DNA of 60,361 bases, counting the filler, from Aduncisulcus paluster (taxonomy: Eukaryota), in assembly GCA_024181965.1 (NCBI GenBank). It is 4 parts of 4 records of this genome, joined end to end, with 100 filler letters (N's around TTAATTAATTAA, not from the genome) between each part and the next. Parts side by side here need not be neighbours in the genome. Positions count along the whole stretch, not along the records: positions 45,128 to 60,361 come from BQXS01010923.1; 3 more parts are not named here. One strand, given 5' to 3'. Positions within the stretch are counted from its first letter, which is position 1. Each line of letters begins with the position of its first letter. Shown here in pieces: positions 37,272 to 60,361 of this stretch. The notes below the pieces were generated by a model. It had not been told where the DNA came from. It worked only from the letters and a program-made list of their open reading frames with translations, and searched no databases. The position numbers and the translations under genes were made by a program.

Positions 37272-38366
37272 ATGGGAGTTAGTGAAAAAATTGCTGAGAT
37301 TGAGTTCGAGATGGCCAGGACTCAAAAAAATAAGGCCACAGAACATCATTTAGGAATGCTTAAAGCTAAACTTGCGAAATTACAACATCAACTCCTTGAG
37401 CAAGGCTCTGCTAAAGGACCCAAAGGTGAAGGATTTGATGTAGCCCGTAGTGGATCAGCCACCGTAGCCTTGATAGGTTTCCCATCTGTAGGAAAGTCAA
37501 GTCTCCTTGCGTCCATCACAGATGCCAAGTCTGAAGCAGCAGCCTATGAATTTACGACTTTGACCACTGTCCCCGGTATAATGCGTCTAAATGATAGCCA
37601 AATACAGGTTCTTGATCTTCCCGGTATCATTGAGAATGCTGCCGATGGAAAAGGTCGTGGAAGACAGGTAATTGCCGTTTCTCGGACAGCCGACCTTGTT
37701 TTGATGATGCTTGATGCTCAAAAGGCCACTTATCAACGTGAAAGACTGACATACGAGATGTGGAAGATGGGAATTCGGTTAAATGAACCGCCTCCAGATG
37801 TCACAATAACTAAACGAAAGTATGGTGGGTTCAAATTCAATTCCATTGTTAAGCAGAGTGTCCTCACTGAAGATTTGGCGCGTAAAATTGCGCACACATA
37901 CCGTTTATTCCATTGTGAGATCCTTGTACGTGAAGATATCACTGTTGATCAATTTATCGATGCCCTGGAAGGAAACAGAGTGTATATCCCTTGTTTATAT
38001 GTTGTTAACAAAGCAGACGCAATTTCCATTGCAGCATGTGAACATTTCGCTGCTTTACCGGACACTGTGCTCACCTGTGTCAAATGGGCATCCAATCTTG
38101 ACTTTCTCAAACAGCGAATATGGGAAAAACTCGGGTTAATTCGGATATATTTGAAAAAAAAGGGGGAACCGATTGATCCAATTGACGATCTTCTTATTTT
38201 GAAAAATGGGTCATCGGTGACGGAAGTATGCCGGAAATTGCATCGTGATCTCGCAGATAGCATTAAATCGGCCAAAATTTGGGGTACGAGTGTTAAACAT
38301 GAAGCTCAAAGAGTTGGTATGGGACATATTGTTGAAGATGGCGATGTTATAACACTTATTAAATAA
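37272..38366 (+). CDS. DRG2: Developmentally regulated GTP-binding protein 2 (Obg family, TGS domain)
   Basis: EMARTQKNKATEHHLG, VALIGFPSVGKSS, YEFTTLT, DLPGII, GRGRQVIAVSRTADL, NKAD, WGTSVKH..QRVG. Confidence 0.95.
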   Translation: MGVSEKIAEIEFEMARTQKNKATEHHLGMLKAKLAKLQHQLLEQGSAKGPKGEGFDVARSGSATVALIGFPSVGKSSLLASITDAKSEAAAYEFTTLTTVPGIMRLNDSQIQVLDLPGIIENAADGKGRGRQVIAVSRTADLVLMMLDAQKATYQRERLTYEMWKMGIRLNEPPPDVTITKRKYGGFKFNSIVKQSVLTEDLARKIAHTYRLFHCEILVREDITVDQFIDALEGNRVYIPCLYVVNKADAISIAACEHFAALPDTVLTCVKWASNLDFLKQRIWEKLGLIRIYLKKKGEPIDPIDDLLILKNGSSVTEVCRKLHRDLADSIKSAKIWGTSVKHEAQRVGMGHIVEDGDVITLIK

Positions 38367-39773: not shown

Positions 39774-40352
39774 GAGTTGGAGTTGGATTTGACTGCGGGG
39801 AAATGTCATGTTCCATGAAGCATCAGGGGATTAGATTCGTAGCAGTATACAGACATACGTATACCATCGTATTCCGAGTTCTTGATATTTTTGATTGTAA
39901 GCAAAAGCAAGTGAAAATGAAACAGAAAGGCAAAGATAAGGATAGAAATGAAATGGAAATATATCCATGTTATTGAATAGCATTGAAATCGTTCATAAAT
40001 GTTCTTGACGCGTGAAATGGAACTATATCCAGTCCTGAGGGTTCTCCAAAAGCCTGAGATATCGAGAATAAACACCATGGCATGGAAATGGAAATAAAAC
40101 ATGTTTTTATCATTTACCAGCATTTAACTCGTTTATATGCGTTTTTTTTAAATTTTTCAATCTTATCTATTGAAGGGTTGCTTGTTCAGTCTGTTGGCGC
40201 AGATGTCCATTTTTTCTCGTCGTACAAGCAAATTGTATGTTTACTATATGTCACATCTTTTATTAAATGTATATTAAGAAATATTTTAACCGGATTCATT
40301 CATTATTCTGCTTGTTTTTATATTTTAGATAAGAAATTCTATCTCTATTCAA

Positions 40353-41597
40353 ATGAGTTCATCCACAGATGCTGTTAGTCAAACTGTAGAACCTGAGTTT
40401 GTTCATGAAGGATATCGCTATTGTTGTCCAGTTCCAGGAGATTCCCCCAATGTTAAGAGTGCAGCATTTCCAACAATCAAAGCAATTGATGGAACCAAGG
40501 AAGAAGGTGATTGTGAGTACGATCAGAGTTATAATGCACAAAGGATGATGAAAGGAGGGTATATTTTAAGACAAGTTACCCAAATCTCCATTCCTTTCTC
40601 TTCATCTTCCCCAATGAAAGGGGCTTATATCTGTCTTGATGGTGATTCTTCACCTCCATCACACCTTATCTTCACTCTCACATCTTCAAATGGTGATAAA
40701 ACATCCAAGAAATACGATTTTCCTGAATTTCATCGTATTCATAAATTTGAAAATTATCGTTGGTATTTCCTTCCTGTTGATCTCCCTGATGTTGTTCTGT
40801 GTGAGATTACAGGGAAAGGAAGAGAGAAAGAGTTTTTTGGAATCCTCTCCCTTGTTTTCATAAGAGATGAAACTCCTGAAGAAATCACATCTCGTGAAGC
40901 CAGAGAGAAACTATGGTCTGAAGCTCCGATTGTGAAACCAGAGTTTGTTAAGGAAGGTGGTAGAGATTCTTTTCTCATTCTACGAGATGATCCAAAGCTT
41001 GTTGATCCTTCATTCTCAATGGTTAAGTGCAAGAATGATTCGGTGAGTAAGGAATCTATGGATTATGATCAGAGTTCAACAGCACAAAGAATGTTAAAAG
41101 GGGAGGATTATGTTGAATTATCCCATCTTTCCATCCCTTTCCCATCACCTAGTCCAATGAAAGGTGCTCATATCTGTGTTCATCAGCGTTGGAGTTCACC
41201 CTCTCTTCTCTTCACTTTCACTGATTGTGATGGTAAGAAGATAAACAAAAAGTATGAATTCGCAGAACACGAACATGGATATGAATGGCACTTCCTTCCT
41301 ATTGATTTGTATAACGTTGTATTGTGTGAGATTGAAGGGAAAGGAAGGTGTGAAGATAAGAACAGTCGAAGTTTCTACATCGAATCCCTTGTTTTCCTTC
41401 GAGGTGATGATATTCCCACCTCTCCTCCTCTTCTTACTCCTGTTCCTGTTCCTTCCATTTCCTCCAAGACACCCACATCAGCTTTGTCTTTGCCATCAAA
41501 ACCTGTGAGAAGAAGAAGAAGAAGAAGAAGACTCTATTCAAATGAGTTCATCCGCAGATGCTGTTATTCAAACCGTGGAACCTGTGTTTGTTTATAA
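40353..41597 (+). CDS. Lineage-expanded two-domain repeat protein, tandem unit 1
   Basis: Two copies of YDQS..AQRM.KG..SIPF.S.SPMKGA.IC..FT.T..G.K..KKY.F..W.FLP.DL..VVLCEI.GK. Confidence 0.85.
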   Translation: MSSSTDAVSQTVEPEFVHEGYRYCCPVPGDSPNVKSAAFPTIKAIDGTKEEGDCEYDQSYNAQRMMKGGYILRQVTQISIPFSSSSPMKGAYICLDGDSSPPSHLIFTLTSSNGDKTSKKYDFPEFHRIHKFENYRWYFLPVDLPDVVLCEITGKGREKEFFGILSLVFIRDETPEEITSREAREKLWSEAPIVKPEFVKEGGRDSFLILRDDPKLVDPSFSMVKCKNDSVSKESMDYDQSSTAQRMLKGEDYVELSHLSIPFPSPSPMKGAHICVHQRWSSPSLLFTFTDCDGKKINKKYEFAEHEHGYEWHFLPIDLYNVVLCEIEGKGRCEDKNSRSFYIESLVFLRGDDIPTSPPLLTPVPVPSISSKTPTSALSLPSKPVRRRRRRRRLYSNEFIRRCCYSNRGTCVCL

Positions 41598-42585
41598 AGG
41601 ATCGGGGGTTTGTTGTCCAGTTCCAGGAGATGCTTCCAATATTAAGAGTGCAGACTTTCCAACAATCAAAGCAATAGATGGAACCAAGGAAGAAGGTGAT
41701 CGTGAGTACGATCAGAGTTCTTGGGCACAAAGGATGATGAAAGGAGAGGGTAATACAGGACATTTTACCCATATCTCCATTCCTTTCTCTTCATCTTCCC
41801 CAATGAAAGGGGCTTATATCTGTCTAGATGATGAATTTTTACTCCCAACACATCTCATCTTCACTCTCACATCTTCAAAGGGTGAGAAAACATCCAAGAA
41901 ATACGATTTTCTTCAATTTAAAGATGTTCTTTGGTTTTTCCTTCCTGTTGATCTCCCTGATGTTGTTCTGTGTGAGATTACAGGGAAAGGAAGAGAGAAA
42001 GAGTGTTTTAATATCCTCTCCCTTGTTTTCATCAGTAGAGAAGAAACTCCTGAAGAAATCAAATCTCGTGAAGCCAGAGAGAAACTATGGTCTGAAGCTC
42101 CAGTTGTGAAACCAGAGTTTGTTAAGGAAGGAGGTATAAAATATATTCCCATTCCACGAGATGATCCAAAGCTTGTAGATCCTTCATTCTCAATGGTTAA
42201 GTGCAAGAATGATGCGTTTAGTAAGGAATCTGTGGATTATGATCAGAGTTCAACAGCACAAAGAATGTTAAAACGGGGAGGTAGTGTTTACTTATCCCAT
42301 CTTTCCATTCCTTTCCCATCACCTAGTCCAATGAAAGGTGCTTATATCTGTGTGGATGAATGGCATAGTTCACCCTCTCTTCTCTTCACTTTCACTGATT
42401 GTGATGGTAAGAAGATATTCAAGAAGTATGAAATCGCAGTATTTGAACATCAAGGTTATGAATGGTATTTCCTTCCTATTGATTTGGATAATGTTGTATT
42501 GTGTGAGATTGAAGGGAAAAGAATGCGGATTGATAAGAATAGTCGATGTTTCTGCATCTACTCCCTTGTATTTACTATGCCATAG
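41542..42585 (+). CDS. Lineage-expanded two-domain repeat protein, tandem unit 2 (probably the same gene as unit 1 across a frameshift)
   Basis: Near-identical paralog of 40353-41400; its frame extends upstream as EEEEEEEEDSIQM. Confidence 0.85.
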   Translation: MSSSADAVIQTVEPVFVYKGSGVCCPVPGDASNIKSADFPTIKAIDGTKEEGDREYDQSSWAQRMMKGEGNTGHFTHISIPFSSSSPMKGAYICLDDEFLLPTHLIFTLTSSKGEKTSKKYDFLQFKDVLWFFLPVDLPDVVLCEITGKGREKECFNILSLVFISREETPEEIKSREAREKLWSEAPVVKPEFVKEGGIKYIPIPRDDPKLVDPSFSMVKCKNDAFSKESVDYDQSSTAQRMLKRGGSVYLSHLSIPFPSPSPMKGAYICVDEWHSSPSLLFTFTDCDGKKIFKKYEIAVFEHQGYEWYFLPIDLDNVVLCEIEGKRMRIDKNSRCFCIYSLVFTMP

Positions 42586-42904
42586 GAAACCATTGCAGCT
42601 GAACGAGTATCTCTACTTCCATGGAAATAATTAAAGAAATTGTATAAAATGCTAATATTGTGTGAAGAATAATAATAAAAAATACACACACATAAGATAT
42701 GTGGGCCAGGGGATGTTTCATTTCCAGGAAATCTAAATAAAATAAAGTAAAAAACAAATATAACCCCGAGGGTGTAGAATTTCAGATCATATATCTAATG
42801 ACAACTGTACATCTCACATATCCTATACAATACTGTGCTATCCTATCCTATACTGGTTGAACATCAAATGAAACTGAGAACGGATGACTAAACAATAGGG
42901 ATAT

Positions 42905-43020
42905 GAAGCATCATGGAGCATCATGTATAAGAATAGATCAGAATAGATCAGCATAGATCATCATGGAACATCATGGAGCATCATAGATCAGCATGAATCA
43001 GCATAGAGAGTATCATGATC
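42905..43020 (+). repeat. Degenerate 10-bp tandem repeat (AGCATCATGG / ATCAGCATAG)
   Basis: About 11 units such as agcatcatgg, atcagaatag, atcagcatag, atcatcatgg, aacatcatgg. Confidence 0.8.
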
Positions 43021-45127: not shown

Positions 45128-46630
45128 CTTTAATTTTCCTTTCTTTTTCTTTCTCTTTCTCCCTTTCTTTCCCCCTTTCTTTTCCTTGTTGAATCATTCG
45201 ATCTTTTGATTTCTTCCCATCTTCGATTTTCTGATCATTTTTAATACTTTCATTCTGGGCCTTTGCAGCTTCCTGAGCGATAGACTTGAACTGGTTCCGC
45301 ATTTTTTCCCGCCTTTTCTCGGGAATTCCGAATGTATAGAGAGGGTAATGTATCAAAGCTATGAGAACAGGGAGACGGACAAGAACACGGGATACAAGAT
45401 CATGCGAAAAAACATATAAGGAAGTTCTCGCCTCGTCTTCATACACAAGCTCAAATTCAGACTTTTCTTTTTGTGTTGAACTATCTTTAGATTTTGAGAA
45501 AGAAGAAGACGATGCTTTAACTTTATCTGCAGAAGGACGTAAAGAGCACCCACAATATTGTCTTGTAAAGATGCGGAAGTCGTTCAGAGTCCACTTTGTC
45601 ACAGGACAAATACAATCCTCCACATCTTCAATATTCTTTGAAGCAAGCTTTTTCAGTTCTCGTTCCACTATCTTGGTCAGAGTCATAAAAAAGGTGGAAA
45701 TAAAGCGTTGTGAGCTAAAGGAGCTCGAGAGATTAGAACGGAGGGTTGAAATGACCTTTTGAGGCGGGATAGAGTGGAATAATCGTTTCCAAGGATCGTT
45801 TGGCGGCTTTAATATTCTTTCAAGGTCGCTGTAAAGAGATGAAGAGGACTCAGTAGATTCATCTGAACTTGAACTCACAACATCGCCTTCTGACAATTCT
45901 GAGGACGAGGAATCTGACCTTTCTTCTTCTTCAGAGGATTCATACGAGTAAGAGTTGTCTGGATCAGATGATTCTTCCTCGCTATACTCTTTTTTAGGTA
46001 TTTTAGAGTGAGAAGAACCAGAATTAACAGATTCGGACCTTTCTTCTTTTTTCACCTTTATCTTCTGCTCTTCTTCTTCTTTTTTGACTTTGATTTTTCT
46101 ATATTTTCCATCTGGATCGTCAACAATAAGTTTGATACCACCAATAGAACATTTGTGAGAGAAGACTAGTGTCATACTGGTGCATTTTTCAAATGAAGGA
46201 AGCGTAAACTTCATCCAATTAATTTTGGACGACAATGGAATGAGTTGACATTTAAATTTTGATCGAGCTTCGGCATTAGTAAGCTTCAGAGAGAAATCCA
46301 ACTGGGTAGTAACTCTAATTTTGAGAAATAGATATTTTACAAATGATTGCGGGAAAGATAGATATATTTTAGAAGAAGTTACAAAGGAAAATTTTTCTTC
46401 AATCTTAGATTTGATATTTTGGCGAACGATTTTTTTTCCTGATGTACCTATAAGATTTTCAATACGATCGATGTGAAGATCAGAGAGTTTTCTATCAATT
46501 AACCAATCGGAAAGTCGAGAATGGAAAGCTTTACCCTCAAGAATGGAGATAGCTGATTGAAATTGTTAATTGGAGAATTGGAAGAGAATAATAGGAAAAT
46601 ATGCAACATCTTTAATTATAACATACCCAT
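45128..46630 (-). CDS. Hypothetical protein, 3'-truncated; start-codon intron 46553-46626
   Basis: ATG-G/GTATGT..ATTAAC..TCAG/CT gives MAISILEGKAF.., open in frame through the 46301 ORF. The N-terminal beta-rich region resembles the expanded repeat domain. Confidence 0.75.
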
Positions 46631-47149
46631 ATTAATTAATTCAATGTATTATAAGAATGATTAATCGTGCTATAGCCAGGAAAACAAGAATGTTTTTGGA
46701 TGGGAAATCATTAAGCTCAAAATCATATTTATCAATTAATTTATTAATGTTAAGAGAAAATATAAGTTGAATTTGGTGTGATACTATAAAAATAATCAAT
46801 TCTAAAACATGTTCCACATTTTCTAGAGATTGTTCATGGGCCACGGGTGGCGAATCATGAAATTCAAAACAAATCAAGTAATTCCCCGAATTATTTTATT
46901 TGGAAAATCAAATTATTTTTATATTAAAAATCCCTATTCAGGGAAAAATAAATATTTATTGTATTGAACTGGGACAATGAAAACGATATCGCCCATCTTA
47001 GTAATGCAGATTATTAACCCCAATCAAATCATTAATTTTTATTTTGATAAGAATTGGGCATTTTTGTGTTTCTTTTTGCGCTAAGTGTATTTTTTTTTGC
47101 AAAATATGAAGATAACTATTATTTTGTCCCATATTACGTTTTATTACTC

Positions 47150-48487
47150 ATGAGTCAACGTGTTCAAGATATTCCACCTCTTCCTCGACTTAGTTTCGAA
47201 CCTCAAAATGCAATTGAAGAACAACATGTGTCTCTTGAACCTCCACAAGCGCCTGAATCTGGAAGTAGATCATATTCTTCACAATCTTCTTATTATTCGT
47301 CAGGTATTTCCAAATTAGGGAAGAAACAAAAGAAAAAGAGAAGTAGAAAACCAACAATTCCCAAAGTTTATTCAAGGCATGAACGATCAAATGTTTTTTC
47401 TTTGGGTGAAGCACAAGATTGGTTGACAGTATTTTATGAGATGATGGAAGGATTTGTGAAGAGTCACGTTGAAATGCAACACTCTTTGGTAGAATTGTCT
47501 AAAAAACAAGATAAATTTATATCAAGAGTGGAAATGAAATTAAAACCCATTGCAAAGATTCAAACTGAATTGCGAACTGCTCTTGATGTCAAATGGCCGA
47601 CGCCAAGTCGTTTAATTCAAATGGAACACGCAATTAAGTCATTTGATTCTAGATTCACTCCAATTATCGAAAGAGTAATCATACGGCACATGGTTGCTTC
47701 TGAAACCAAATCATCACGTCATTTGGAGCTACGGGACTTTATTGTTGATGAAATCAATCCGAAGAATCCAGAGCTCACCGAGGAATTAGCCCTATATTTT
47801 CAGAAGCTCGATGCTTCGGATCGTGAGAGTATCATTGAATATATTGACAAGCGGGTTGCATCAAAGGTAAGAGGAGTCAAAAAATACACAAAAGAAACAC
47901 GTGTGACATGGTTGAAGAAATACGGAAAGCTTGGAATTTGGGATGATGCTATTATGGGCCCATGGGTGGAAAACGGTAGACCGGCAGGGAAACGTGGAAG
48001 AAGAAGAAAAAATGGAAAATTTGCCAGTGATAATGATGATGAAACAGATAAACCTGAGAGACAAGGTGATGAATTGCCCCAGAGCATTACCGATGATGAA
48101 GGGTCAGAGGAAGACGAAATAACGAATACTAAGCACACGAGTAGAAAAAAGGGTGTAAGTCTCGGTGAGAAAAAGAGAACCCAACCGAGAACAGGTATAA
48201 CTCAGCAATCTGGGAAGAGGAGGACGCGTGGAGACGATATTCTTGGAAAGGGAGAAGGGGAAGAGGAAAGCGGTCCTTTTTATAGCTTACCCTTGGAAAA
48301 GAGAAAGAAAGTCACCAACAACTATGAAGAGGGAGAGGACGAGGAAGAAGATCGTATTGACTTTGATAAGGATGATGAGGAAGAAGAGGAAGATGATGAG
48401 GAAGAAGAAGAAGAAGAGGAGGATGAAGAAGAAAGAAGAAATGGGAGCCTTTGGGGACAATTGGCAAAAAAATATCAGCGAAAGTGA
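47150..48487 (+). CDS. Transposon-borne accessory protein (basic patch, coiled coil, helical domain, acidic tail)
   Basis: Intact 445-aa ORF lying wholly between the TIRs; ATG at 47150. Confidence 0.75.
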   Translation: MSQRVQDIPPLPRLSFEPQNAIEEQHVSLEPPQAPESGSRSYSSQSSYYSSGISKLGKKQKKKRSRKPTIPKVYSRHERSNVFSLGEAQDWLTVFYEMMEGFVKSHVEMQHSLVELSKKQDKFISRVEMKLKPIAKIQTELRTALDVKWPTPSRLIQMEHAIKSFDSRFTPIIERVIIRHMVASETKSSRHLELRDFIVDEINPKNPELTEELALYFQKLDASDRESIIEYIDKRVASKVRGVKKYTKETRVTWLKKYGKLGIWDDAIMGPWVENGRPAGKRGRRRKNGKFASDNDDETDKPERQGDELPQSITDDEGSEEDEITNTKHTSRKKGVSLGEKKRTQPRTGITQQSGKRRTRGDDILGKGEGEEESGPFYSLPLEKRKKVTNNYEEGEDEEEDRIDFDKDDEEEEEDDEEEEEEEEDEEERRNGSLWGQLAKKYQRK

Positions 48488-48546
48488 AACCATAGCTTCC
48501 CAAAAAAATACTTGTTCAACTATTATCTGATTCAATTGAAATTTAT

Positions 48547-49250
48547 TTATTTATCCTTATGTTTGGGATTAAGAATCAATTTACAAAAAACGAAGTTATC
48601 GCTATCATTGAGTGGACAAACCACTGAAGAAATAGGAATAGATATGGTATCAGAACAATATGATGTCTTTTGAGTAAAGGCAGCAGCTGATTTAATACAT
48701 TCTGTAACTCGTTCTTCAGTCTTGTTGGGTTTAAAAAGAATAACCTGAAAGAGGCTCAACAAAGCTTTCATAGCTGCATCTAACATAATTGTTTTCCAGT
48801 TTGTATTGGAAAAGGGAGTATTGACCGGCCATATCCTGACACCAATAGAACTCATCTTTTTTTGGGCGAAGTTTTGTTGGTGGGATGGGACTTTTGAGCT
48901 GAAGGGCATCGATGGCCAATTGGGCAGCAGTCTTGTGGTACCGCTTATACCGCATAATTCCTTGTTGTCTATTCATGCTTCGCTCCCATGGCACACTGTC
49001 CAAATTTCTCATGCACCCATAGTTGATGATGGCCTCTTCAAAGTGTGCTGGGATAGCATGGAAACATAGAACAGTGGTGTTCATCGAAATTTAATCCTAG
49101 ATGAAATTTCTTGGGTATTTATAGGCTTTAGAGAGACTTTCCCATCAGTATTCAAGGATTATGAAATGAAGACTTTGGAAACTGATCCCAGGCCGCCTGT
49201 ATGACGTGTCTGGAGACCTCTGTTTTAAACCAAAAACTGAAGTTTTTCTG
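48547..49250 (-). pseudogene. CACTA/EnSpm transposase C-terminal remnant (frameshifted, middle deleted)
   Basis: FHAIPAHFEEAIINYGCMRNLDSVPWERSMN..AQLA matches the H..H....I...G.......(F/W)ER catalytic-Glu region. A +1 shift at the T run near 48733 joins it to the 48547 ORF. Confidence 0.72.
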
Positions 49251-49764
49251 AAAGAAAAATTTATATAGCAAAATATTACTTATCAAAAGGAAGTCTTTGT
49301 TTATTTCTTTTCGCACAAAGCAGAGTTTGCCGTCATATAAATAAAAAAAAAAAAAAAAAAAAAAAAGTATTCGATTCAACTAAGTATGATGCTAAAATAG
49401 TGTTTCGGACAGACATCTGTCTTAATAATATGTTAGATAATAAAATTGACTAATAATATCGTTATTAACGGTTAATATTACATACTGTTTAGGGTAGGAA
49501 ATTCAATCAAATATAGTAATTTTTATTAATAATTTTGATTATTTTGTAAAATAAAATATTATTAAGAATCAAATATAATATTATGATTAATATTGAAAAT
49601 TAATTTTTTTTATTGTTAATTGTTAATCTATTGGATTAACCCCGTCTGAAAAATTATTAATATTTGATCAATAATCCCGGCAGCCAAATAATCAATTTGA
49701 TTTTATTTGATTCGAAAAAAATTGCTCGCCACCCGTGGGCCGCTTTCCTATCTGAAATATCACC

Positions 49765-52700
49765 TCACTCAAGGCCAGAAAAGAAGAAATCACTGCTTCC
49801 ATTTAGTTCGAGAAATATTTTATACCTATATCCATCTATCGGGACGATATTCCAGACATCATGAATACGGATTCTGATCATATCTTTTTCATCAGAAGAA
49901 CACACTTGAACGTTCGGAACATATACACAATAGGCTCGAATAACATCATCAAGAAGCATAACGTTCACTACTCTGCGAACATCAGACTTGGAGACAGTTG
50001 GGATGAAAGAACATATTTTTCCAATGGAACATGAACCAAATCGGTAACAATTTGAAATAATTGCATTCCGAATTATTGAATTGTACAATCCATTATGATG
50101 TATTGCCCTTTTATGGAATAAATCCTCTTCTTCCATCTTGGTTTGAGAACCTTCATTCAAAAACATTGGAGAGAAAGGAGAAAGGGGATAAGAAGATGAA
50201 CATAACGGGTGAACAGCCGCCTTTGAGAAACCTGTGGACGCTGCTCCAGGCTTCCTCCCAATAAACTCACTTTGAACGTTGATTGAGATCATTTCAGTTC
50301 CATCTTCATACTGTTCGACCTCAACTTCCCTCCAATCATCCACCTGTTCAGTTGAAGAGCTTGATGGTGTCTTATGACGCCTGTGTGAGTGTCGATGCTT
50401 GGAAGAACTATCCTTCGTAGTATCGGTCTGATCTCCTCCACTCTCCAAAATAGTAGAAGTTGGTGTGGGTGGTTGTTCTTTTCTACTACGATGACGTGAC
50501 CCTCTTCCTTCTCCTCTCTTCATTTTAAGAAGTTCTTTAGGTCTAACCTTGACCATTTCTCCATCAATCCCACACAATCCATGCCAAAGGCCAAGATTGA
50601 ATGAAAGAAATGATAGTTGGGTCTTACCGGAGGCAGAATCAAAGCTGTCCAACGATGGTTGGGAAATATTTTCATTCGCGTGTTTCTTTAATTGACTCGA
50701 AGAGAAATGCCATTTTTGGGCAGTTCTGAATGTCCAAGCTCTGCTTTGAGCTCCAATGGCTAGAATAGAGCAGTGATAATATAGAAAACTAAGTATGGAA
50801 GAGAGTAAGAATTGACCATCAGAATCAAGAGGAATTGATGTACACAAGGATTTGATGGAAGAAACGTTTGAATACGCATCCACCAGATCTCCAGTATTGG
50901 GGGTAGAAGAAGTANNNNNNNNNNNNNNNNNNNNCAACGATGGTTGGGAAATATTTTCATTCGCGTGTTTCTTTAATTGACTCGAAGAGAAATGCCATTT
51001 TTGGGCAGTTCTGAATGTCCAAGCTCTGCTTTGAGCTCCAATGGCTAGAATAGAGCAGTGATAATATAGAAAACTAAGTATGGAAGAGAGTAAGAATTGA
51101 CCATCAGAATCAAGAGGAATTGATGTACACAAGGATTTGATGGAAGAAACGTTTGAATACGCATCCACCAGATCTCCAGTATTGGGGGTAGAAGAAGTAA
51201 AAGAGGTAAAAGGTAATGGATCGATAATATTTTTGATAGGGGTTGATATCTTTGAGGTAAGAGAAGAATGGAGGATTCCAGTTTCTCCAGATTCTATAAT
51301 TAGACCAAGAACAAGACAAATCAGTTGGAATAAGGAGTATGGGTTATAATTATAAGGTGGAGCTAAGAACCGAGAGAGCAGACGTGAAGAGGAAAGGACA
51401 GGAAATAGAGACAAAGTATCTTTGTTCAATTTAGCTATTTTTATAGGTTCTTCCTCTCTCTCTTCTTCTTCTTCACATTCCTTCTTCTCTTCTTCTTCTT
51501 CTTCTTCCTTTTCTATGGTTGTACCAAGAATATCCTTCCTTTCATTGAAAACACAGGCCAGTTCTTCCTCTACAGTTAATCTCACCTGAGCAGATAAGCT
51601 GAAAGAATCAAGACCACGCAGAGCATCACTGATGAAAGAAATCTGCTCAATAGTTGGTCTACAAACAATAAACGCTGGTTCCTTCTCTTTCTCTCCTCTT
51701 TCTTCCTGCATATCTCTTTCTTCCTCTCTTCTTCCTTCCTCATTCAATTCTATGATAGTTGGCACCATCCTTTCTTTCTCTTTTTGTCGATCGATTTGAA
51801 TTCTCCATAGTCTGACCTTTCTCTCTTCTTCTTCCACGTCATCCTCTTTTTCGTTTGTGGCACCCCATTCTTGGTGGGTCACAAGACGACGCACGCCAGA
51901 AGAAATCGTCAGAGGGAACTCATCGTTCTCAGTACTCGTTTCATTTGAGGTTGGTTTGTTTGATTTGGATGATAGAACTCTCCGCTTTCCGGCTGAAACC
52001 GAAGCTGAGGGTGACGAGACGGCATTTCCATCGGTTGAATCTCCTTGGTTAAGTATAGAAGACTGCTCTGAGCTTGTAGAGAGTGCTTTTTCATGGTTAG
52101 ATATGGAATTCCAAGATGTCACACGAATCCTTCCTCGCAAAAACTCGCAGATAACACCTAATGAAAATCCTTGTGGAAGGAAGGAAGCAAGAGGAATAGA
52201 TAAGAGATTGAAAACATTCTTTAATTCAGGAACTTGGACCAATGAGGTCTCATTTCTATTTATAGCATCTTTATGCATCTCTTGAGAAAGTTCTTCTGGT
52301 TCAGACATTGCGCCAAACATTATATTGGTACTTTCTTCGTCTTCTTCGTCTTCTTCGTCTTCTTCTTCGTCTTCATTCATATTGTATTGTGTAGTATATG
52401 ATTTTGATCCTTTGAATTGTTTCCTTAACAGACGTCTTGCATCCTTTCTCCTCTCTTTTCCATCAATTCCCAAGACCTCATCAAGAGCACTGGTATTTTC
52501 TTCCTCGGCCTCTTCCTTTCCATCAGTGATATCCATAGACTCATTGCTCCATATAAGCGAAGTACTGACCAAAGCTCCTCCGATGATAGTCGTTGGAAGA
52601 CAGAGTTTTAGAAGGGAGTTGGCATGGGAGGCAGTAATACAATGCGGAAGCATAGAGAGAGAAAGAGGAGTCGATTCTATCAAAGGAATGAGCATTGTGT

Positions 52701-55700
52701 TTGACTTGAGTGGGTTTGAGTCAGAAGTAGCGATTGTACGAGGGTATTTAATAGTCTTTACAGAGGAAGAAGAGATGGACGGATATGAAACACTCTTCTT
52801 CTCTCTCATGACTCCACCAAGACCCAAATACAACAGAGCATATGGAAAATCAATAGAATACTCAACATCAAGACCCCTGCAGAGCCTAGTAATCGAGAAA
52901 GGCGTGTAAGACATGTCAGAACATATTGATTCTCTAACAGCAATGCTCTCTCGGTATCTGCTGGCCAAAATAGGGAGACACGAGGAAATCGAATACAGAT
53001 GATGAGGTGAGGCATTGAGGGTTGAATGTGAGGCAACACAGGATAGAGAACGACTGAATCGGAGAGAAAACGGGAACACAACATGGAATACATTTGCTTT
53101 AAAGGTAGAAATAAGACGAATCATCGGAATCACATGCATATCGGGTGGAAATGTGGACACATCAACTTCTTCTGGTTCCTTTTCAGCTCCATTTCCTGAT
53201 GATTCCTTCGAGACAAAGATCTCTCGTTGTTTCCACAGAGTTCTAAGATCATTCGAAGTGACTCCATGATCTCTCAAAGAATTCTCCAATGAATTTACAA
53301 GGAGAAGGCTAGCGTATAATCTCTGAATAACGGGAGGTTTTACACGGTTCCGGAGTCGAGCTTCAGTTCGTCTGGCATTGACATATTTCCTTTCTTCTTC
53401 CATTTTTCTCCAGTCGGTAGAACCGTGGTGTTTGTCCACGCTTCTGGTTGAACGATAAGATAGGACTAAACGTAAAAATATTGCAATCAACGGAGGAATT
53501 TCAACAGCCCCTTGATGCAGAAAAGTAGACTCAATTGACAACAAAAGCTTGTCAATGATCTGTGTCAAAGCTTGATCTTCTTCAAACTCATTGATTTCCT
53601 GTTCTTCTTCGGCATCTGTTTGGAGTTGAGTCATTGAACTCACATTACTCTCTGTGGTGGTTACTGTTTCCTCAGTTGTCCTATCTTTCTCTCCTTCCTT
53701 CTCTTTCTCTTCTCTTTCTTGCTGCTGCTGTAAAGTTAAATCATGATCACCTATAACCATTTGCGTTGTTGTATTGCTGGCATGTTCTAATATTAGATTC
53801 CTTGTTGAAGGGACAACATCACTGAACAACGATGCAGTTTCTGGAAGGGTGATCGCATTGGCAGCAACATTCTTCGCAATTTCACGTCTCCTTTCAATTT
53901 TTCTTTGTTCTTCTTGGAAAGCCTGGCTTGAAGCCGTTTGGTTCTTTTCATCTCTTATTCTCTTTTCTTCCTCTTTTTGTTGAGCAACCTTGGCTCGTTT
54001 CTCTTTCATCTTAGCTTCCTTCTCTTGTCTTCTCTGTTCCTTTTCTTCTGCCTTTTCCTGGGCTGACATCTTATACATAAGCTCTGCCTTCTTCTTTCTC
54101 TTTTCAAGCAACGCGTCCTTCCTCTTCTTCTTCTTTTCCTCTATAGCTCTCTCCCTCTCTTCTCTTTCGCGAATATCATCAGAATCTTCACCAAGTGCTT
54201 CAATTTCCATGGTTCTATCATATTGGAACCAACGTTTCTTCCATTTTTTCATCTGATGGAACTTAATACCCGAGGACATCATTGGGGGAGTTGGGAATAT
54301 GGATGAATATATCTGATTGAGGGGCACAAATGAACGGAACAAAGATCGTGTCGATGTCACAATTACGTTGCCCTGATCATCCTTGGCAATGTCCAACTCT
54401 TCAATCTCTTCCCCTTCAAGAATATCTTCCTCTTCTTCCATTTCTTCTTCCTCATCCTCATCTTCAAGCTCTGCCTCTTCCTTGACATTATGAAGGTGTG
54501 CTTGATTTTGAAAGAATGAATTGGGATCATAAAACACTTTTTGAGCAACTTCCATTCCAAATATTTCCTTGAACCGGTCCTCTTCTTCCCACACCTTCTT
54601 TTTCTCAAGCTCCAATAAATGTGTAGCCTCTGTTTCATTTCTAGCACAAACCACAACTTTACCCACATCTCTGACGTCTTCAAACCAATCACGTCGGAGG
54701 AATAATTCCTTTAAGACCTGTGGGAATACATTGCTATTGGTACGAATAATGGCTGAATACGACTCAAAGTGACGATCCCTGACAATTTGAATGATTAATT
54801 GGGATATATTCGCACTCAGGAGAGCAAAAGCTTTGTCAACATCAGAGATGGAATGAATATCAACTATTTGTGGAGATATTGGAGGGATTGGAGGAACAGG
54901 GATTTGATCACGGCTTCTTGATTTGAGTTTGGCGTGCATTTCCTTGGGATGTTTATACCACCCTTGTCGTTTTAGCCAGACATTTTCCCATTCTTCTTCC
55001 CATTGTTTCCTTGAAATGCACATTATGACCTTTTCTCCATCATATAACATTGTTGGAACAAGAATTCGATTGGCAAGGACATACAAAATATCGTGATTGA
55101 TTGAATCTATTGGGAACTCAGCAAAATCATCCAACAAGGGGAGTGTTGATGCGCTAAGTCGATCGGCTTTGATATTGCCAACTGGGATTGCCCACCCCAA
55201 CTTGACCAACACAGACACAAATCTTAGGGTTGAACTATTATGGTGTGTAAGATGGTCATACCTTTGGATATTTGAAGGATGCACTGGGGGAAGTGTGAAT
55301 GAATGGGAACAAGTTCCGAATGGAACAGGATGTGGATTTGGAGAGAAGAGTAAAGGATGGTGAACAGGGTCGAGAGACTCATCGAACTCTCTCAACAATG
55401 GCCATTCAATAATATCGTGGAAACAAGCAGAGGAACATGCAGATGAGTTCATCACAAGTGGAGCAACTCCCAACTTTAGATGGGTATTTGCACGGACTTC
55501 AGATACACTCCAGGCTGCCGAACTACAGAATATAGGCACGGGAAGAGGTGAATAAGTACATAATGCATGAAGGTTACGAATATTCCAAGGATCATCAGAA
55601 ATAGTCGATTCTTCTTCCTCAATATCCATGGTTGCAGGTATCACATCATCGTTCATATCCAATTCCAAGGTGGGATCATAAAACTTAATAACATATCCTT

Positions 55701-56598
55701 CACGTTCATAAATAGCCTGTTTCACAGCATGTTGAAGACGTCTCATCCTTTTTTGAGTGACGCAGAGTCTGGCAAATACAGGATCATCCTTTGGAAGTCT
55801 TATATCTTTCCCCTTCACCAACAGATGGAGTGTGTTCCCATCAATGTAAGGATATTGAGGTCTTATCTCCTCCTCACTCTCCTCCTCTCTTGTCAACACT
55901 CTCTTTTCACCCTCCGTTTCTCCAATGTTTGTTCTAAAGAGTCCTCTCTTATCATCGTAGTCCTTGAGAATAGTCGAAGATCCCAACACAAGTAACTTCT
56001 CAATGCGGGTTCTCCACCTTGTCATTCCCCTCAAAGCACAATGGGCACTCGAGGCAGGTCGAGGGATACCATGTGACGATGAACAACCCTTGAGATAAAC
56101 GGACACAGGAACAGGAGGAATGATATCCAATGAACACGACGGGATAGTTAGCACAGGGGGATCGGGCATGGGTGGGCGAGGAACAGAGGCCATGACATCT
56201 TCAAGTGTCAGTGAAGGATCAGAAACTTGGGAAGTTACATTAAGATCTTCACTTCTTCCTTCCTCTTCCTCTTCCTCTTCCTCCTTTTCCTCCTTTTCCT
56301 CCTTTTCCTCCTTTTCCTCTTCTTTTTTCTTCAGCTTTAGTGAGGATAGTTCCTCTTTCTTTTTCTCGACTTCTCTTAACCACTGGGTTTCTCTGAGCCT
56401 TGATTCATTGAAATAATCACGCTGTTTCTTAAACTGCTCCAAAATAGTCAACGATAGAGTTATAGGAACTTGCGTATTGATAAAATTCACCATGTGTTTC
56501 CAAAACTCACGACTTAATTTCTCTTCTTGTTCTTTAATTTCTTTTGCTTTCTTTCTTTTGTCCTTTTTGAGAGAGTCGCAGAATTGTCCAGGGGATTT
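49765..56598 (-). CDS. GTF3C1: TFIIIC B-block-binding subunit, C-terminal part (frame-split from the upstream ORF)
   Basis: The 2242-aa ORF frame stays open back to 56598 and overlaps the upstream ORF; winged-helix-like C-terminus. Assignment rests mainly on continuity with the N-terminal part. Includes a duplicate at gap 50915-50934. Confidence 0.6.
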   Translation of the reverse strand, partial: KSPGQFCDSLKKDKRKKAKEIKEQEEKLSREFWKHMVNFINTQVPITLSLTILEQFKKQRDYFNESRLRETQWLREVEKKKEELSSLKLKKKEEEKEEKEEKEEKEEEEEEEEGRSEDLNVTSQVSDPSLTLEDVMASVPRPPMPDPPVLTIPSCSLDIIPPVPVSVYLKGCSSSHGIPRPASSAHCALRGMTRWRTRIEKLLVLGSSTILKDYDDKRGLFRTNIGETEGEKRVLTREEESEEEIRPQYPYIDGNTLHLLVKGKDIRLPKDDPVFARLCVTQKRMRRLQHAVKQAIYEREGYVIKFYDPTLELDMNDDVIPATMDIEEEESTISDDPWNIRNLHALCTYSPLPVPIFCSSAAWSVSEVRANTHLKLGVAPLVMNSSACSSACFHDIIEWPLLREFDESLDPVHHPLLFSPNPHPVPFGTCSHSFTLPPVHPSNIQRYDHLTHHNSSTLRFVSVLVKLGWAIPVGNIKADRLSASTLPLLDDFAEFPIDSINHDILYVLANRILVPTMLYDGEKVIMCISRKQWEEEWENVWLKRQGWYKHPKEMHAKLKSRSRDQIPVPPIPPISPQIVDIHSISDVDKAFALLSANISQLIIQIVRDRHFESYSAIIRTNSNVFPQVLKELFLRRDWFEDVRDVGKVVVCARNETEATHLLELEKKKVWEEEDRFKEIFGMEVAQKVFYDPNSFFQNQAHLHNVKEEAELEDEDEEEEMEEEEDILEGEEIEELDIAKDDQGNVIVTSTRSLFRSFVPLNQIYSSIFPTPPMMSSGIKFHQMKKWKKRWFQYDRTMEIEALGEDSDDIREREERERAIEEKKKKRKDALLEKRKKKAELMYKMSAQEKAEEKEQRRQEKEAKMKEKRAKVAQQKEEEKRIRDEKNQTASSQAFQEEQRKIERRREIAKNVAANAITLPETASLFSDVVPSTRNLILEHASNTTTQMVIGDHDLTLQQQQEREEKEKEGEKDRTTEETVTTTESNVSSMTQLQTDAEEEQEINEFEEDQALTQIIDKLLLSIESTFLHQGAVEIPPLIAIFLRLVLSYRSTRSVDKHHGSTDWRKMEEERKYVNARRTEARLRNRVKPPVIQRLYASLLLVNSLENSLRDHGVTSNDLRTLWKQREIFVSKESSGNGAEKEPEEVDVSTFPPDMHVIPMIRLISTFKANVFHVVFPFSLRFSRSLSCVASHSTLNASPHHLYSISSCLPILASRYRESIAVRESICSDMSYTPFSITRLCRGLDVEYSIDFPYALLYLGLGGVMREKKSVSYPSISSSSVKTIKYPRTIATSDSNPLKSNTMLIPLIESTPLSLSMLPHCITASHANSLLKLCLPTTIIGGALVSTSLIWSNESMDITDGKEEAEEENTSALDEVLGIDGKERRKDARRLLRKQFKGSKSYTTQYNMNEDEEEDEEDEEDEESTNIMFGAMSEPEELSQEMHKDAINRNETSLVQVPELKNVFNLLSIPLASFLPQGFSLGVICEFLRGRIRVTSWNSISNHEKALSTSSEQSSILNQGDSTDGNAVSSPSASVSAGKRRVLSSKSNKPTSNETSTENDEFPLTISSGVRRLVTHQEWGATNEKEDDVEEEERKVRLWRIQIDRQKEKERMVPTIIELNEEGRREEERDMQEERGEKEKEPAFIVCRPTIEQISFISDALRGLDSFSLSAQVRLTVEEELACVFNERKDILGTTIEKEEEEEEEKKECEEEEEREEEPIKIAKLNKDTLSLFPVLSSSRLLSRFLAPPYNYNPYSLFQLICLVLGLIIESGETGILHSSLTSKISTPIKNIIDPLPFTSFTSSTPNTGDLVDAYSNVSSIKSLCTSIPLDSDGQFLLSSILSFLYYHCSILAIGAQSRAWTFRTAQKWHFSSSQLKKHANENISQPSLXXXXXXXTSSTPNTGDLVDAYSNVSSIKSLCTSIPLDSDGQFLLSSILSFLYYHCSILAIGAQSRAWTFRTAQKWHFSSSQLKKHANENISQPSLDSFDSASGKTQLSFLSFNLGLWHGLCGIDGEMVKVRPKELLKMKRGEGRGSRHRSRKEQPPTPTSTILESGGDQTDTTKDSSSKHRHSHRRHKTPSSSSTEQVDDWREVEVEQYEDGTEMISINVQSEFIGRKPGAASTGFSKAAVHPLCSSSYPLSPFSPMFLNEGSQTKMEEEDLFHKRAIHHNGLYNSIIRNAIISNCYRFGSCSIGKICSFIPTVSKSDVRRVVNVMLLDDVIRAYCVYVPNVQVCSSDEKDMIRIRIHDVWNIVPIDGYRYKIFLELNGSSDFFFSGLE

Positions 56599-59595
56599 TC
56601 AGGGTTAAGAATAGATTCTTCAGACTGAACAGTGCGATCGGTTGTTTGATCGTTTTCAGTATCCTCATGCATTTCATTTTCGGGAACAATACTTTCAGGA
56701 GCATGATCCAATAGCCACTTACCATAAAATGTTTGATAGTCAACCCCGCCAATCGTGATTTGTTCAGATTTCCAACAGTCCAGGAGAGCTCTGAAAATAG
56801 TCTTCCTATCAATTTGTCTGACCCTTTGAGGGATCGAAGGGATGTAAGGAAGGTCTTTCTCTTCATCGTCTCCAAATATTATCGAAGACGAGGAGGAAGA
56901 GGAAGAGGAGGAGACAAAGCCAGATGATGTACTGAGAGAACTCTGTGATTTACGAGGAGATGCTAGGAAGTAATCTTCAGCATCAAGAAGAGCAGAAAGC
57001 CCACCTGTCTTTCTTCTTGTTTTCGCCCTTTCTTCTCTCCACTTGCCTTCCTCTTCTTCAGCCCATTCACGTTGCCTTCTTGCCAATTCTCTTTTTTCCT
57101 CGTGTTGGATTCGACGCAATTTCTCAGTGTTTCTTTGTTCCGTCACAGTCTCAAATTCCACCCATGATTGCAGACTTGCTTTAAGTACTTTGATTGTTAT
57201 AGTGGGTCGAGTTGAAGGTATCCAGGCTTCGTGAGAAATTGAATATGGAGTTAGTTCGAAAGGTACAAGAAGAGACACAATGAAAGAATTCATTTTAGAT
57301 CGATCAAAGGACATTTGAGCACCTTTCTTTGATGAAACAGAGGGAGATAATGCTGAGAGTTGAGCATGAGATGGATCACCGGAGGGGGGATTAAGAAGAG
57401 AAGAGGGTCCAAGGGGAGAAGATGGGGGTGGTCGGCTCAAACCGGCATTAGTATCGGTTGATACCGGTTGTTGGGACAGATAAGGAGTGAGAACTGTTTG
57501 TTTTTCTGATGGTAATGATGGAATATGTTTCAAGAATTCCAATGAAACCTCATCAGAGTAGGATTCTGATGATTGAAGTTGAATTTCTCCCTCATCAAGT
57601 CTTGGAATATCATCCAATATTGTAGAATTATCAAATATCTTAACATCTCCAAGAGTCGGCTGTGAGAATTTGGCCCATCGTCTCTTGAAATCCATCCTTG
57701 CCCTTTTCCTCTCATTATCTATTCTTTGGAATGTAGACTTCCACCCATGCCACCCGGATACTTTTTTCATTTTCATTAACTCCCCACGCAAAAATGTTGC
57801 CCTGGATTCTGTGGAAAGGCTATAAAACATATGATGTTGCTTATCAACAAGTTTCTTGATAGATTCGAGTTTCCAGGACTTCGCAATGATATCAAGCTGT
57901 TTCCTGGCCATTTTTGAACACCTCCTTGGGAGATGATCAAGAAGAAGGAATAGGTTGAGAGTATCCGAATGTGTGAAAGAAGATAGGATGATTGAAGGGA
58001 TGGAGAAGAAGAGAGTAGATACTATTCCTCGATATGAAAATGCATTCGTAACAGGATTGGAACACACAAAGCGCTTGAGAGAAGAAGAAGGTTCAGAGGG
58101 TGATGACATGGCTTTTGAGGATAATATTGGGTAATTATGTTGTGAAGCTTGAAGAGAAGTGGCACTATCTTGACGTTGGATAGAGTGTAAGTCAGTTAGG
58201 TGCTCAGCCTCTGCTGGGGCATTCTCAAGGTTCTGAATGACTGGACATAGAAAACACATTCGTTTCCCTCTGACTTCTTTCTTAAGAATTCCTTGCTCAA
58301 CAACATTTCCACTGCCACAATTCATAGTCACAAGGGCAAAAGAATGCGTAACAGGGGTGTAGGGGTTGAAAAGAACATTAGGCGGATCAATACCGTATGT
58401 TGTGGAATCAATACCGTCTAAAACCGGTGAAGATGAGAGATCCTCGGGGGTTGGGGATTTAGAAGATGTTTTGACTTGCTCACGGCGTAATGTTCCATCA
58501 TTCCAGAGGGTAATTGCTTCCCTAATATTCTGAATAAGCCTCTTTGTGCATGCAACTTTGGCATCGGGTCCCATTAAATCCTTTGTATATTTCCCCAAGA
58601 ACTCTATGAATGGATTGAGGGGAACTGGCATAGAGTGCGAAAGAAGAGGTGGGAGAATAGCTTTGATATTTTCAAAAATAAGTGAGATGGGAAGGGAATC
58701 GGAAGGGAGTCCATAGTCGTTGGGAATGTCATCAGGAGATATCAACAGTAACTTAGAAGTTTTAAAACGACGCCTCTCTGCTTTAGAAAATTTATAAGAT
58801 GATTTCTTTTTACCTTTTTGAGTCGAATGTTCACCAGACTCTTCAATTTGAAATTTTTCCCAATAACGAAGCATATACACATGTAGGGCCTCTATAATAG
58901 AAGTTTTCAAGACGAGTGGGCAATCAACATCTGAGAATCTGGGTTGAGGTTGGGGGGCGAAAGGTTTTAAAAATACAAAATTACTTGGTTTTCTAAGTTT
59001 ACCATCTCGAATGGTTGCTCGAACAATGATATTTTCTTCAATGAGTGGTAAAAGGGATGAAAACATTGATGCCGGAGACAATTTAACTGTTTTCGAAAGA
59101 CAAACCTGATCCACTCCTTTTTCTCTAGAACGTCCTACAGCATCTAATATTTTAATAACAACATCAATGGGCTGTAAAAATGAAGAATAATTCCAAGCTT
59201 TCAAGATAAGCGAAAATCTAGCAACTATAGAGTCCTGTTTAGCAGTAATGTGGGGCAAAAGGAGAAGATCCTTCCATAATTGATTTAATATTTCATCCGA
59301 TACATTTATATTGTGATATTTAACTAGCAATTTTGATAGACGGGATTTGTCAGTGCCTATATGTATAATTAAGAAGAAACGGAGCAAAACCAATATAAAA
59401 TAAAGAATATAAGATTAATTGGCAAGTTATTAGTTATGAAAGATAAAAAAGTTAGTTGATCTAATCAATAAATCATTTAAAACACAAGTAAAACGCAAAA
59501 TCGCATATACAATACATACCTTCTTTTCCATCCAAAGCCACCTCTCTCAATGCTATTTTAGTCAATTTGCCATATGATATCGGTGGAGTTGACAT
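56514..59595 (-). CDS. GTF3C1: TFIIIC B-block-binding subunit (Tfc3/tau138), N-terminal part; intron 59357-59519
   Basis: Exon 1 ..ALREVALDGKEG (cf. LLDEVALEGLDG), GTATGT..ATAG intron, ILDAVGRSREKGVDQVCL (B-block domain), IDRKTIFR motif. Confidence 0.8.
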
Positions 59596-59897
59596 TATAA
59601 ATATTGCAGAGGGTACAAAAGGACATAAATGAGGTAGAGCACCATATAACAATATTCTATTATTTTTAGTCATTTTGGTTATCATAATTTGTTTAATGTT
59701 TTAAAAATTTAAATACAATATTGTGCTACATTTATGAATTACGGTGCTATATCGTTTTTGTTCCTAGCTGGAAATGAGTATTAATCAAATAAGTTTCCTA
59801 TCTCAAATCATTTTTATTGTACTATTTATGAAACAAATATCTTATTATATCTTGAATAATAATATTGTCGGACAAATTGATTATTTTGGATTGCAAT

Positions 59898-60361
59898 ATG
59901 GAGCCCTTCCAAAAGAGTATCAGTCTTATAAGCGAACTAATTACCAAGATCGAGAGTGAATCCGGAATTTCTGCGCCAATCACTGCTATAAAGCCCATAG
60001 AAAAGAAAGAAGAAAAGGTCGAGAAGAAGGAAAAGAAAGAGAAGAAGGAAAAGAAAGAAAAAAAAGAAAAGAAGGAGAAGAAGGAGAAGAAGCCAAAAAA
60101 TAAGACCCCAGCTGTTAAGTGCCCACCTTTGGTTCAATCTTTCCACAAGGCTGCCATTGTTTGTGGAAAAGTCACAAAATGTGTTCCCCTGGAAGGTAGT
60201 GAGAAGCTCTTCCTCTGTCAACTTCAAATCAGTGAATCTGAAAGTCGTGAACTTGTGACTGGTCTTCAACATTATTATGAGGCCTCCGAACTTGAAGGAA
60301 AGATGGTTGCTTGTATCGTTAACTTGAAGCCAGCTAAACTCGCAGGTGTCATGTCTTATGC
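59898..60361 (+). CDS. tRNA-binding OB-fold protein (Arc1p/AIMP1/EMAP II-like), runs off window end
   Basis: MEPFQKSISLISELITKIE.., (EKK)n linker, then IVCGKV..SEKLF..RELVTGLQHYY..LEGKMVACIVNLKPAKLAGVMS. Absent from the ORF track because it has no stop in the window. Confidence 0.9.
   Translation, partial: MEPFQKSISLISELITKIESESGISAPITAIKPIEKKEEKVEKKEKKEKKEKKEKKEKKEKKEKKPKNKTPAVKCPPLVQSFHKAAIVCGKVTKCVPLEGSEKLFLCQLQISESESRELVTGLQHYYEASELEGKMVACIVNLKPAKLAGVMSY

Follow-up and report, generated by a model that had tools for sequence, protein, structure and literature searches.

The window analysed here is a stretch of 60,361 bp from the eukaryote Aduncisulcus paluster (assembly GCA_024181965.1), in which four parts of the genome are joined end to end and positions 45,128 to 60,361 come from BQXS01010923.1. 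Within this last part, between two host genes on the - strand, lies a sharply bounded element of about 2.9 kb (46842-49737) that carries terminal inverted repeats (TIRs) and a target site duplication (TSD). Its interior holds an intact open reading frame (ORF) of 445 aa on the + strand (47150..48487, hereafter ORF445) and, tail to tail with it, two overlapping ORFs on the - strand, one of 117 aa (48731..49084) and one of 120 aa in another frame (48547..48909); the stop codons of ORF445 and of the - strand pair are 59 bp apart. Further to the right, a 212-bp poly(A) retroposon is nested in the element (49154..49365). According to our analysis, this is a delimited TIR element with at least one short sibling copy elsewhere. 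We posit that it is probably a non-autonomous class II TIR transposon, a deletion derivative that is moved in trans, with ends most like those of the CMC (EnSpm/CACTA-Chapaev) elements.

The element starts with a perfect 12-bp TIR, CACGGGTGGCGA (46842..46853, +), and closes with the reverse complement, TCGCCACCCGTG (49726..49737, -). Beyond these 12 bp the complementarity of the left and right ends is imperfect, reaching 73% over 40 nt and extending on the left side to ~46877. Both ends are bordered by the triplet GGC (46839..46841 on the left and 49738..49740 on the right). Read as a direct repeat, the left flank ending in GGGC and the right flank beginning with GGCC share exactly GGC, which is their sole suffix/prefix match and is 3 bp long, while the outer, thirteenth pair C46841/G49738 is also complementary by chance. 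As GGC makes up 0.62% of the trinucleotides of the window, chance alone would seldom place it on either side of the element at once. When up to two mismatches are allowed, the TIR 12-mer is found at two places only in the window, namely the two ends of the element; this test is weak, since at least two such matches were obtained in 18/100 shuffles. The composition of the repeat is more telling. Inverted 12-bp pairs with at least nine G/C were observed twice in the window, as the TIR pair of the element and as a GGAGG-type pair at 16700/28526, against a mean of 0.025 in shuffled sequence, and 0/200 shuffles reached two. The TIR and its GGC flanks are real and no product of chance, and the GC-rich pair stands out as the preliminary description of this locus had said.

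Evidence for mobility comes from contigs of two coded runs (X1 and X2) of one public sample, which were aligned with the window. The X1 contigs break at 46971/2 and at 49475/6, and a joint contig (depth 940) passes from 46971 straight to 49476. It leaves out 2504 bp, and its two sides have no letters in common where they meet. Two sequences share the stretch 46881-46971 (one contig, depth 2171) and then run either into the interior (contig 46942-48364, depth 1283) or jump to 49476. On the right side, a contig covering 49476-49737 (depth 2017) stops on the last base of the TIR, and a flank contig (depth 1271) begins at 49708 and extends into the right flank. The 30-nt overlaps at 46942-46971 and 49708-49737 represent branches of the 31-mer graph, from which it follows that the other copy diverges from 49738 on. 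The left end of this other copy is a variant contig (depth 1000) with A>G at 46876 and 46880, which ends at 46911. Its match begins at ~46843, at the TIR, an estimate derived from the bin 46728-46918 (mean depth 793) on the assumption that only the variant contig and the 46881-46971 contig fill this bin.

The short copy measures ~392 bp and consists of a 130-bp left arm (46842..46971, +) and a 262-bp right arm (49476..49737, +), with the two A>G changes in the left arm as its only differences from the window copy and none listed for the right arm. The depths (arms 2171 and 2017, interior 1283 and 1240, flank 1271, joint 940) agree with two copies of the arms and one of the interior, where contig depth, following the warning of the tool, is not a copy number and is used only as being consistent with the graph structure. 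Because interior and flank contigs are of equal depth, the 392-bp form would not be an allele of the window locus. A joint that shows neither microhomology nor duplication fits a deletion derivative and not an insertion into a small element. The shared termini and the parting exactly after 49737 mark the element as mobile, with TIRs and a target duplication of 3 bp, and the near-identity of the two copies together with the different flank suggests recent transposition. The earlier proposal of a transposon with TIRs, exact ends and a duplication of 3 bp is hence borne out by the perfect 12-bp TIR, the GGC/GGC flanks and the second copy, and its expectation that other copies would share the termini by the ~392-bp copy, the joint 46971/49476 and the contigs breaking exactly at 49737/49738.

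No contig joins 46841 to 49738, as would be seen at an empty site, among the contigs of X1 and X2, which drop rare variants. Within the 60-kb window there are no other copies of the TIR or of interior parts, the only matches being GAA repeats. The left-end 20-mer yielded 0 matches in metagenome contigs and 0 in viral contigs. Two prokaryote matches of this 20-mer, both in metagenome-assembled genomes of Archangium, were discarded as chance, as they did not extend past 20 bases and lay in DNA of 67% GC. Run X2, which is RNA only by guess, covers 47184-48334 and 48443-49181 without differences. Uninformative coverage holes exist for X2 on the arms, and for X1 and X2 together over nearly all of 45200-46727 and over the window version of 46842-46880.

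ORF445 has an N-terminus that is basic and rich in Ser, and its tail is acidic; a GRP/Arg-rich stretch lies between them. The codon score of ORF445, 0.298 per codon, is host-like (0.299 for the DRG gene of the window). No Pfam-A family was found for it at E<=1 or E<=10, and the PDB returned low-complexity matches only. Searched as a whole against a collection of 5.8 billion proteins, ORF445 retrieved itself only among 8000 scored candidates, the acidic tail having saturated the word filter; residues 70-285 likewise retrieved only themselves among 532 candidates. Residues 80-285, back-translated and searched in metagenomes, gave 322 pattern matches of which 0 were confirmed. An AlphaFold2 (AF2) model of these residues, built with no alignment, is all helical, but poor, with a predicted local distance difference test (pLDDT) score of 49.2. 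In a language-model atlas, ORF445 had three matches at 0.89, below the 0.9 bar, to Mucoromycota and Basidiomycota clusters that each group several hypothetical proteins. Rfam and ARAGORN identified no RNA family, and two snoRNA-like matches inside ORF445 (E 0.34-0.38) are attributed to chance. By sequence comparison, ORF445 is an orphan, which would most simply be regarded as an element-specific accessory or DNA-binding protein, with a role like that of TNPA, or as a captured gene.

Taken as a unit, the two - strand ORFs can be read as a coding region of ~180 aa that contains a frameshift, for which an A7 run near 48860 is a possible site. The contigs of both X1 and X2 match the - strand ORF sequence without differences and thus contain the frameshift as well. 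The codon signal lies in the right frame for the 120-aa ORF (codon score 0.19-0.28). Between 49084 and the right TIR, stops occur throughout all three - strand frames. The 117-aa ORF contains the residues H9-x4-H14, G23 and E34-R35, and the loose H..H..ER pattern occurs once in the 20,743 ORF residues of the window. The spacing H-x4-H-x19-E equals that of H937, H942 and E962 in mouse RAG1. On account of this spacing the pair might represent the frameshifted last ~180 codons of a transposase, a reading that we put forward tentatively and with some doubt. If it is correct, the remnant has lost the C(2)C motif along with the two catalytic D residues. The AF2 model of the 117-aa ORF, again made with no alignment, is poor (pLDDT 52.6). 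In the language-model atlas, the best match of this ORF scored 0.84, and a cluster with DUF4218 in 11% of its members ranked 14th (0.82), which is the one lead besides the motif spacing that favours a remnant. PF13960, sought as a source of a CMC transposase for comparison, was not found in one genome and 14 control genomes.

The family of the element was judged from its ends only, set against published descriptions of known systems. EnSpm elements are described with CAC..GTG termini and 3-bp TSDs, and the wider CMCT clade with CA..TG termini, duplications of 2-5 bp and transposases in all of which H(3-4)H precedes the last catalytic E (PMC12730594), while Chapaev elements have invariable CAC/GTG termini and 3- to 4-bp duplications (PMC4079192). 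The element starts with CACGGG at 46842, ends with CCCGTG at 49737 and is flanked, on one copy, by GGC/GGC. The preliminary description had named CAC/CCC termini and TSDs of 2-4 bp for CMC elements; the CAC..GTG ends and the 3-bp TSD of the element match the descriptions of EnSpm and Chapaev. With EnSpm/CACTA, the element further shares short TIRs, possible subterminal repeats and internally deleted non-autonomous derivatives; it differs in its CACGG terminus, its convergent ORFs without relatives, a motif that is marginal and the lack of a Transposase_21 or DUF4218 signal in the Pfam search. The Chapaev3 elements of PMC4079192 have TWA as their insertion site, in contrast to the GGC duplicated at this locus, and there is no transposase by which the element could be placed. 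Transib and RAG1-like elements likewise have CA..TG termini, and the H(3-4)H motif ahead of the final catalytic E runs through the whole CMCT clade (PMC12730594).

The proposal of an undescribed CMC family holds for the CMC-like ends and TSD, but the novelty of CACGG was overstated, since CNEST, a CMC element of Cryptococcus neoformans, has TIRs that start with CACGG (bioRxiv 10.1101/2025.05.19.654958). CNEST is reported to be ~7.2 kb long, with 33-bp TIRs, 2-bp TA duplications and a large CMC-type transposase, whereas our element has 2.9 kb, a perfect TIR of 12 bp, a 3-bp GGC duplication and no recognisable transposase, and its GGC/GGC flanks do not allow for the TA duplication of the CNEST/ESTA lineage. 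The ~392-bp copy, which is made of the two arms only, resembles the deletion derivatives known as miniature inverted-repeat transposable elements, but only one short copy was seen, and nothing points to an amplification to high numbers. Transib makes 5-bp duplications, and a PDB search at E<=10 gave no sequence match to Transib or RAG1. Canonical Harbinger elements also make 3-bp TSDs, according to the same description of the CMCT clade (PMC12730594), so that PIF/Harbinger fits in TSD length, yet the Pfam search of the three ORFs found no DDE_Tnp_4 and no Myb/SANT-like domain. None of the three ORFs was recognised as a CMC transposase, and what remains is an H-x4-H...E spacing in line with the CMCT signature. 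As non-autonomous copies can do without a transposase, the negative result leaves membership in CMC possible. Under the Repbase rule, non-autonomous elements are classed by the same TSD length and by alignable terminal positions 1-11, with one mismatch allowed. We consider the element to be a new family of a known kind, the cut-and-paste DNA transposons, and we call it CMC-like rather than filing it as a proven CMC member.

The arms also contain a candidate binding site. The motif AATCAAAT/ATTTGATT is present 20 times in the window, and five of these occurrences fall in the 392 bp of the arms, one at 46906..46913 (+) and the others starting at 49505, 49567, 49695 and 49705. In 12/12 other AT-rich windows of 392 bp, the top 8-mer count was 2-3. 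As judged from its distribution, AATCAAAT may be called a candidate binding site and no more. We posit that a DDE transposase encoded elsewhere in the genome would recognise the TIRs, and perhaps the AATCAAAT subterminal motifs, excise the element in trans and re-insert it via 3-bp staggered cuts. The poly(A) retroposon hit this copy later. A full transposase would not fit into the window copy and has left no trace in it, and this copy would be unable to move by itself.

A number of observations weigh against the interpretation as a CMC-like deletion derivative. X1 and X2 stem from the same sample, which may be the source of the assembly itself, and are hence not independent of it. The 3-bp duplication is known from one copy, as the flanks of the second are not visible, and the terminus reads CACGG and not the strict EnSpm/CACTA pentanucleotide CACTA. 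Regarding the proposed transposase remnant with its H..H..G..ER motif, the motif spacing is indeed present, but similarity to any transposase was not recovered: Pfam-A, including Transposase_21 and DUF4218, gave 0 families for 3/3 ORFs at E<=1 and E<=10, so that the profile comparison suggested for the - strand peptide came out negative; an exhaustive phmmer search of the 117-aa ORF against 1.84 billion representatives found only the ORF itself and a spurious tandem-repeat protein; and the PDB, with RAG1 and Transib chains included, gave no match for the 117-aa ORF at E<=10 and none for the 120-aa ORF, which was searched against Pfam and PDB. Besides, the definition of the H..H..ER pattern was drawn up with the sequence already known, the codon score of the 117-aa frame is weak (0.064, compared with -0.02 to -0.11 in non-coding controls), and all language-model matches lie below the 0.9 bar and are leads only. 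The enrichment of the subterminal motif is marginal, as five copies of some 8-mer were reached in 4.2% of 2000 shuffled versions of the arms (P = 0.042). Lastly, each interior ORF looks as if it were present once in the run, no relatives of either came up in the searches, and nothing ties them to transposition; of the earlier claim that the two convergent genes are transposon genes, what stands is that both lie inside the element.

The lack of a CMC transposase signal in Pfam, phmmer and PDB, together with termini that leave CACTA at position 4, would also be expected of a TIR transposon from a non-CMC superfamily, known or undescribed, that makes 3-bp duplications, in which case CAC..GTG would be a coincidence and the - strand ORF unrelated. 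Canonical Harbinger elements, as described, have duplications of this length, and Repbase classes non-autonomous elements only by alignment of the termini, which were here compared by description. We nevertheless regard a non-CMC origin as rather unlikely, because CAC..GTG with a 3-bp TSD is the described hallmark of EnSpm and Chapaev, a CMC element starting with CACGG is on record in CNEST, the H-x4-H...E spacing fits the published CMCT signature and the Harbinger-type DDE_Tnp_4 and Myb-like domains are missing from the Pfam results. Another alternative is that ORF445, and perhaps the - strand ORF too, is host-derived cargo (a Pack-type transduplicate) or a resident host gene, instead of a transposition protein specific to the element. 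ORF445 is intact, its codon usage is indistinguishable from that of host genes, it looks single-copy where the arms look two-copy, and it has no relatives in collections rich in transposable elements or in others. Long-resident elements, however, also acquire host codon usage, no host paralogue appeared in the 5.8-billion-protein collection, where ORF445 found only itself, and its 0.89 neighbours in Mucoromycota and Basidiomycota are of the kind that ORFs borne by transposable elements give, albeit as a lead only. On balance we hold such an origin to be unlikely.

An intact ORF445 and a deletion derivative with two differences in 392 bp, which suggests recent activity, could further be taken to mean that the element is autonomous and that its orphan protein or proteins are unrecognised transposition machinery. 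This we judge highly improbable: the middle of ORF445 is predicted to be all-helical without the beta-sheet of an RNase-H-like DDE domain (although a pLDDT of 49 marks the model as poor), the - strand ORF carries a frameshift and spans only ~180 codons, and a retroposon has inserted inside the copy. Also very unlikely is a new CMC/Transib (RAG1-like) lineage, in a compact and intron-poor host, whose proteins are beyond sequence recognition, in which the - strand protein keeps only the zinc-binding H-x4-H and the catalytic E, and ORF445 serves as a helical, AT-hook-like factor that binds the ends; that this factor would still be in use is read from the existence of the near-identical deletion copy. 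It is finally conceivable that there is no transposon but a chance inverted repeat around two ordinary host genes, as the window contains 236 perfect 12-bp inverted pairs that are 0.3-15 kb apart (95.7 in Markov shuffles; the count leaves out the TIR pair of the element, owing to the register rule and the complementary thirteenth outer pair) and no other copy of the element. GC-rich pairs are rare, though, with 0/200 shuffles reaching the observed count, the same rare triplet borders both flanks, the two arms are linked in a single contig and what the copies have in common ends precisely with the TIR, all of which renders this explanation extremely improbable.

Under the favoured reading, a CMC-like element mobilized in trans, the annotation of this locus is to be corrected in that two "hypothetical genes" sit in a mobile element, which in turn contains a retroposon. 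The exact ends, the target duplication and the short derivative provide the means to trace the family through the genome. The near-identical copies suggest recent activity, beside the 3' end of one gene and the promoter of another. In other respects it is an ordinary class II element, which without its transposase adds little on CMC, unless the orphan proteins prove functional.

The nested insert, which had been overlooked in the preliminary description, spans 49154..49365 (+) and is flanked by 7-bp duplications of AGTATTC (49147..49153 and 49366..49372). It is a poly(A) retroposon, either a short interspersed element (SINE) or the 5'-truncated tail of a long interspersed element (LINE). Its A run at 49343-49366 comprises 24 A, the last of which may belong to the duplication. 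X1 and X2 contigs pile up on ~49150-49330 with a summed depth of 43,000-149,000, compared with ~1,270 on neighbouring contigs, and loose contig ends occur before 49152 and also before 49223, 49264 and 49283-49292. Such a pile-up with several loose 5' ends is typical of a poly(A) retroposon that exists in many copies, truncated to varying degrees at the 5' side. The insert hence combines the 3' poly(A), flanking duplication and many copies expected of a retroposon without long terminal repeats (non-LTR). Rfam and ARAGORN revealed no tRNA, 7SL or 5S head, and there is no second copy within the window. The retroposon inserted after this copy of the DNA element.

The right end of the element lies 27 bp beyond the stop codon (49765-49767) of a 2242-aa ORF on the - strand (49765-56493). 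This distance confirms the earlier account, whereas the name TFIIIC that was given to the gene there has no support from Pfam or PDB: at E<=0.01 the ORF matched no Pfam family, and among the PDB chains it had one low-complexity match only and none to TFIIIC. For the gene downstream of the element, a short intron is possible at 46600-46630 (-), where the ATG is directly followed by GTATGT, with an AG 17 nt on. The window is gene-dense, and Pfam domains are unbroken by introns in 3/3 recognisable genes (DRG2, a protein kinase and a ZIP transporter). The intron-free DRG2-type GTPase (37272-38366, +) shares only 53-56% identity with named orthologues from fungi, animals and protists alike among the 120 listed; the best of the matches listed, a record under the label Pleurobrachia bachei, reaches 61% identity over 72% of the query. 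A window so dense in genes and free of introns speaks against an animal as host, which is a fast-evolving, compact eukaryote.

Several other repeats were found in the window. A perfect 19-bp inverted pair at 96-141 and 3605-3650, with GGTGGGACACTCTG ending at 141 and CAGAGTGTCCCACC starting at 3605, faces outwards, in the manner of a right and a left end that belong to two different elements. Just inside the 3605 end, the ORF 3797-4927 has a weak match to DUF659, which is associated with hAT elements (21.3 bits, below the cut-off of 34.7), and the two ends possibly belong to hAT-type transposons. Gaps of 20 N are present at 6406-6425, 15933-15952, 24901-24920, 26325-26344, 28012-28031 and 50915-50934, and 6/6 of them lie between direct repeats of 181-300 bp that are 100% identical. 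These repeats are assembly or scaffolding artefacts that duplicate sequence, and through one of them a part of the 2242-aa ORF is found twice, before and after its X run. A tandem duplication of ~1.17-1.19 kb with 84-91% identity occupies 40343-42572 and extends over the ORFs 40353-41597 and 41542-42585, for which Pfam found no family. Just downstream of these duplicated ORFs, at 42893-43017, lies an array of 10-bp units resembling ATCA[TG]CATAGA.

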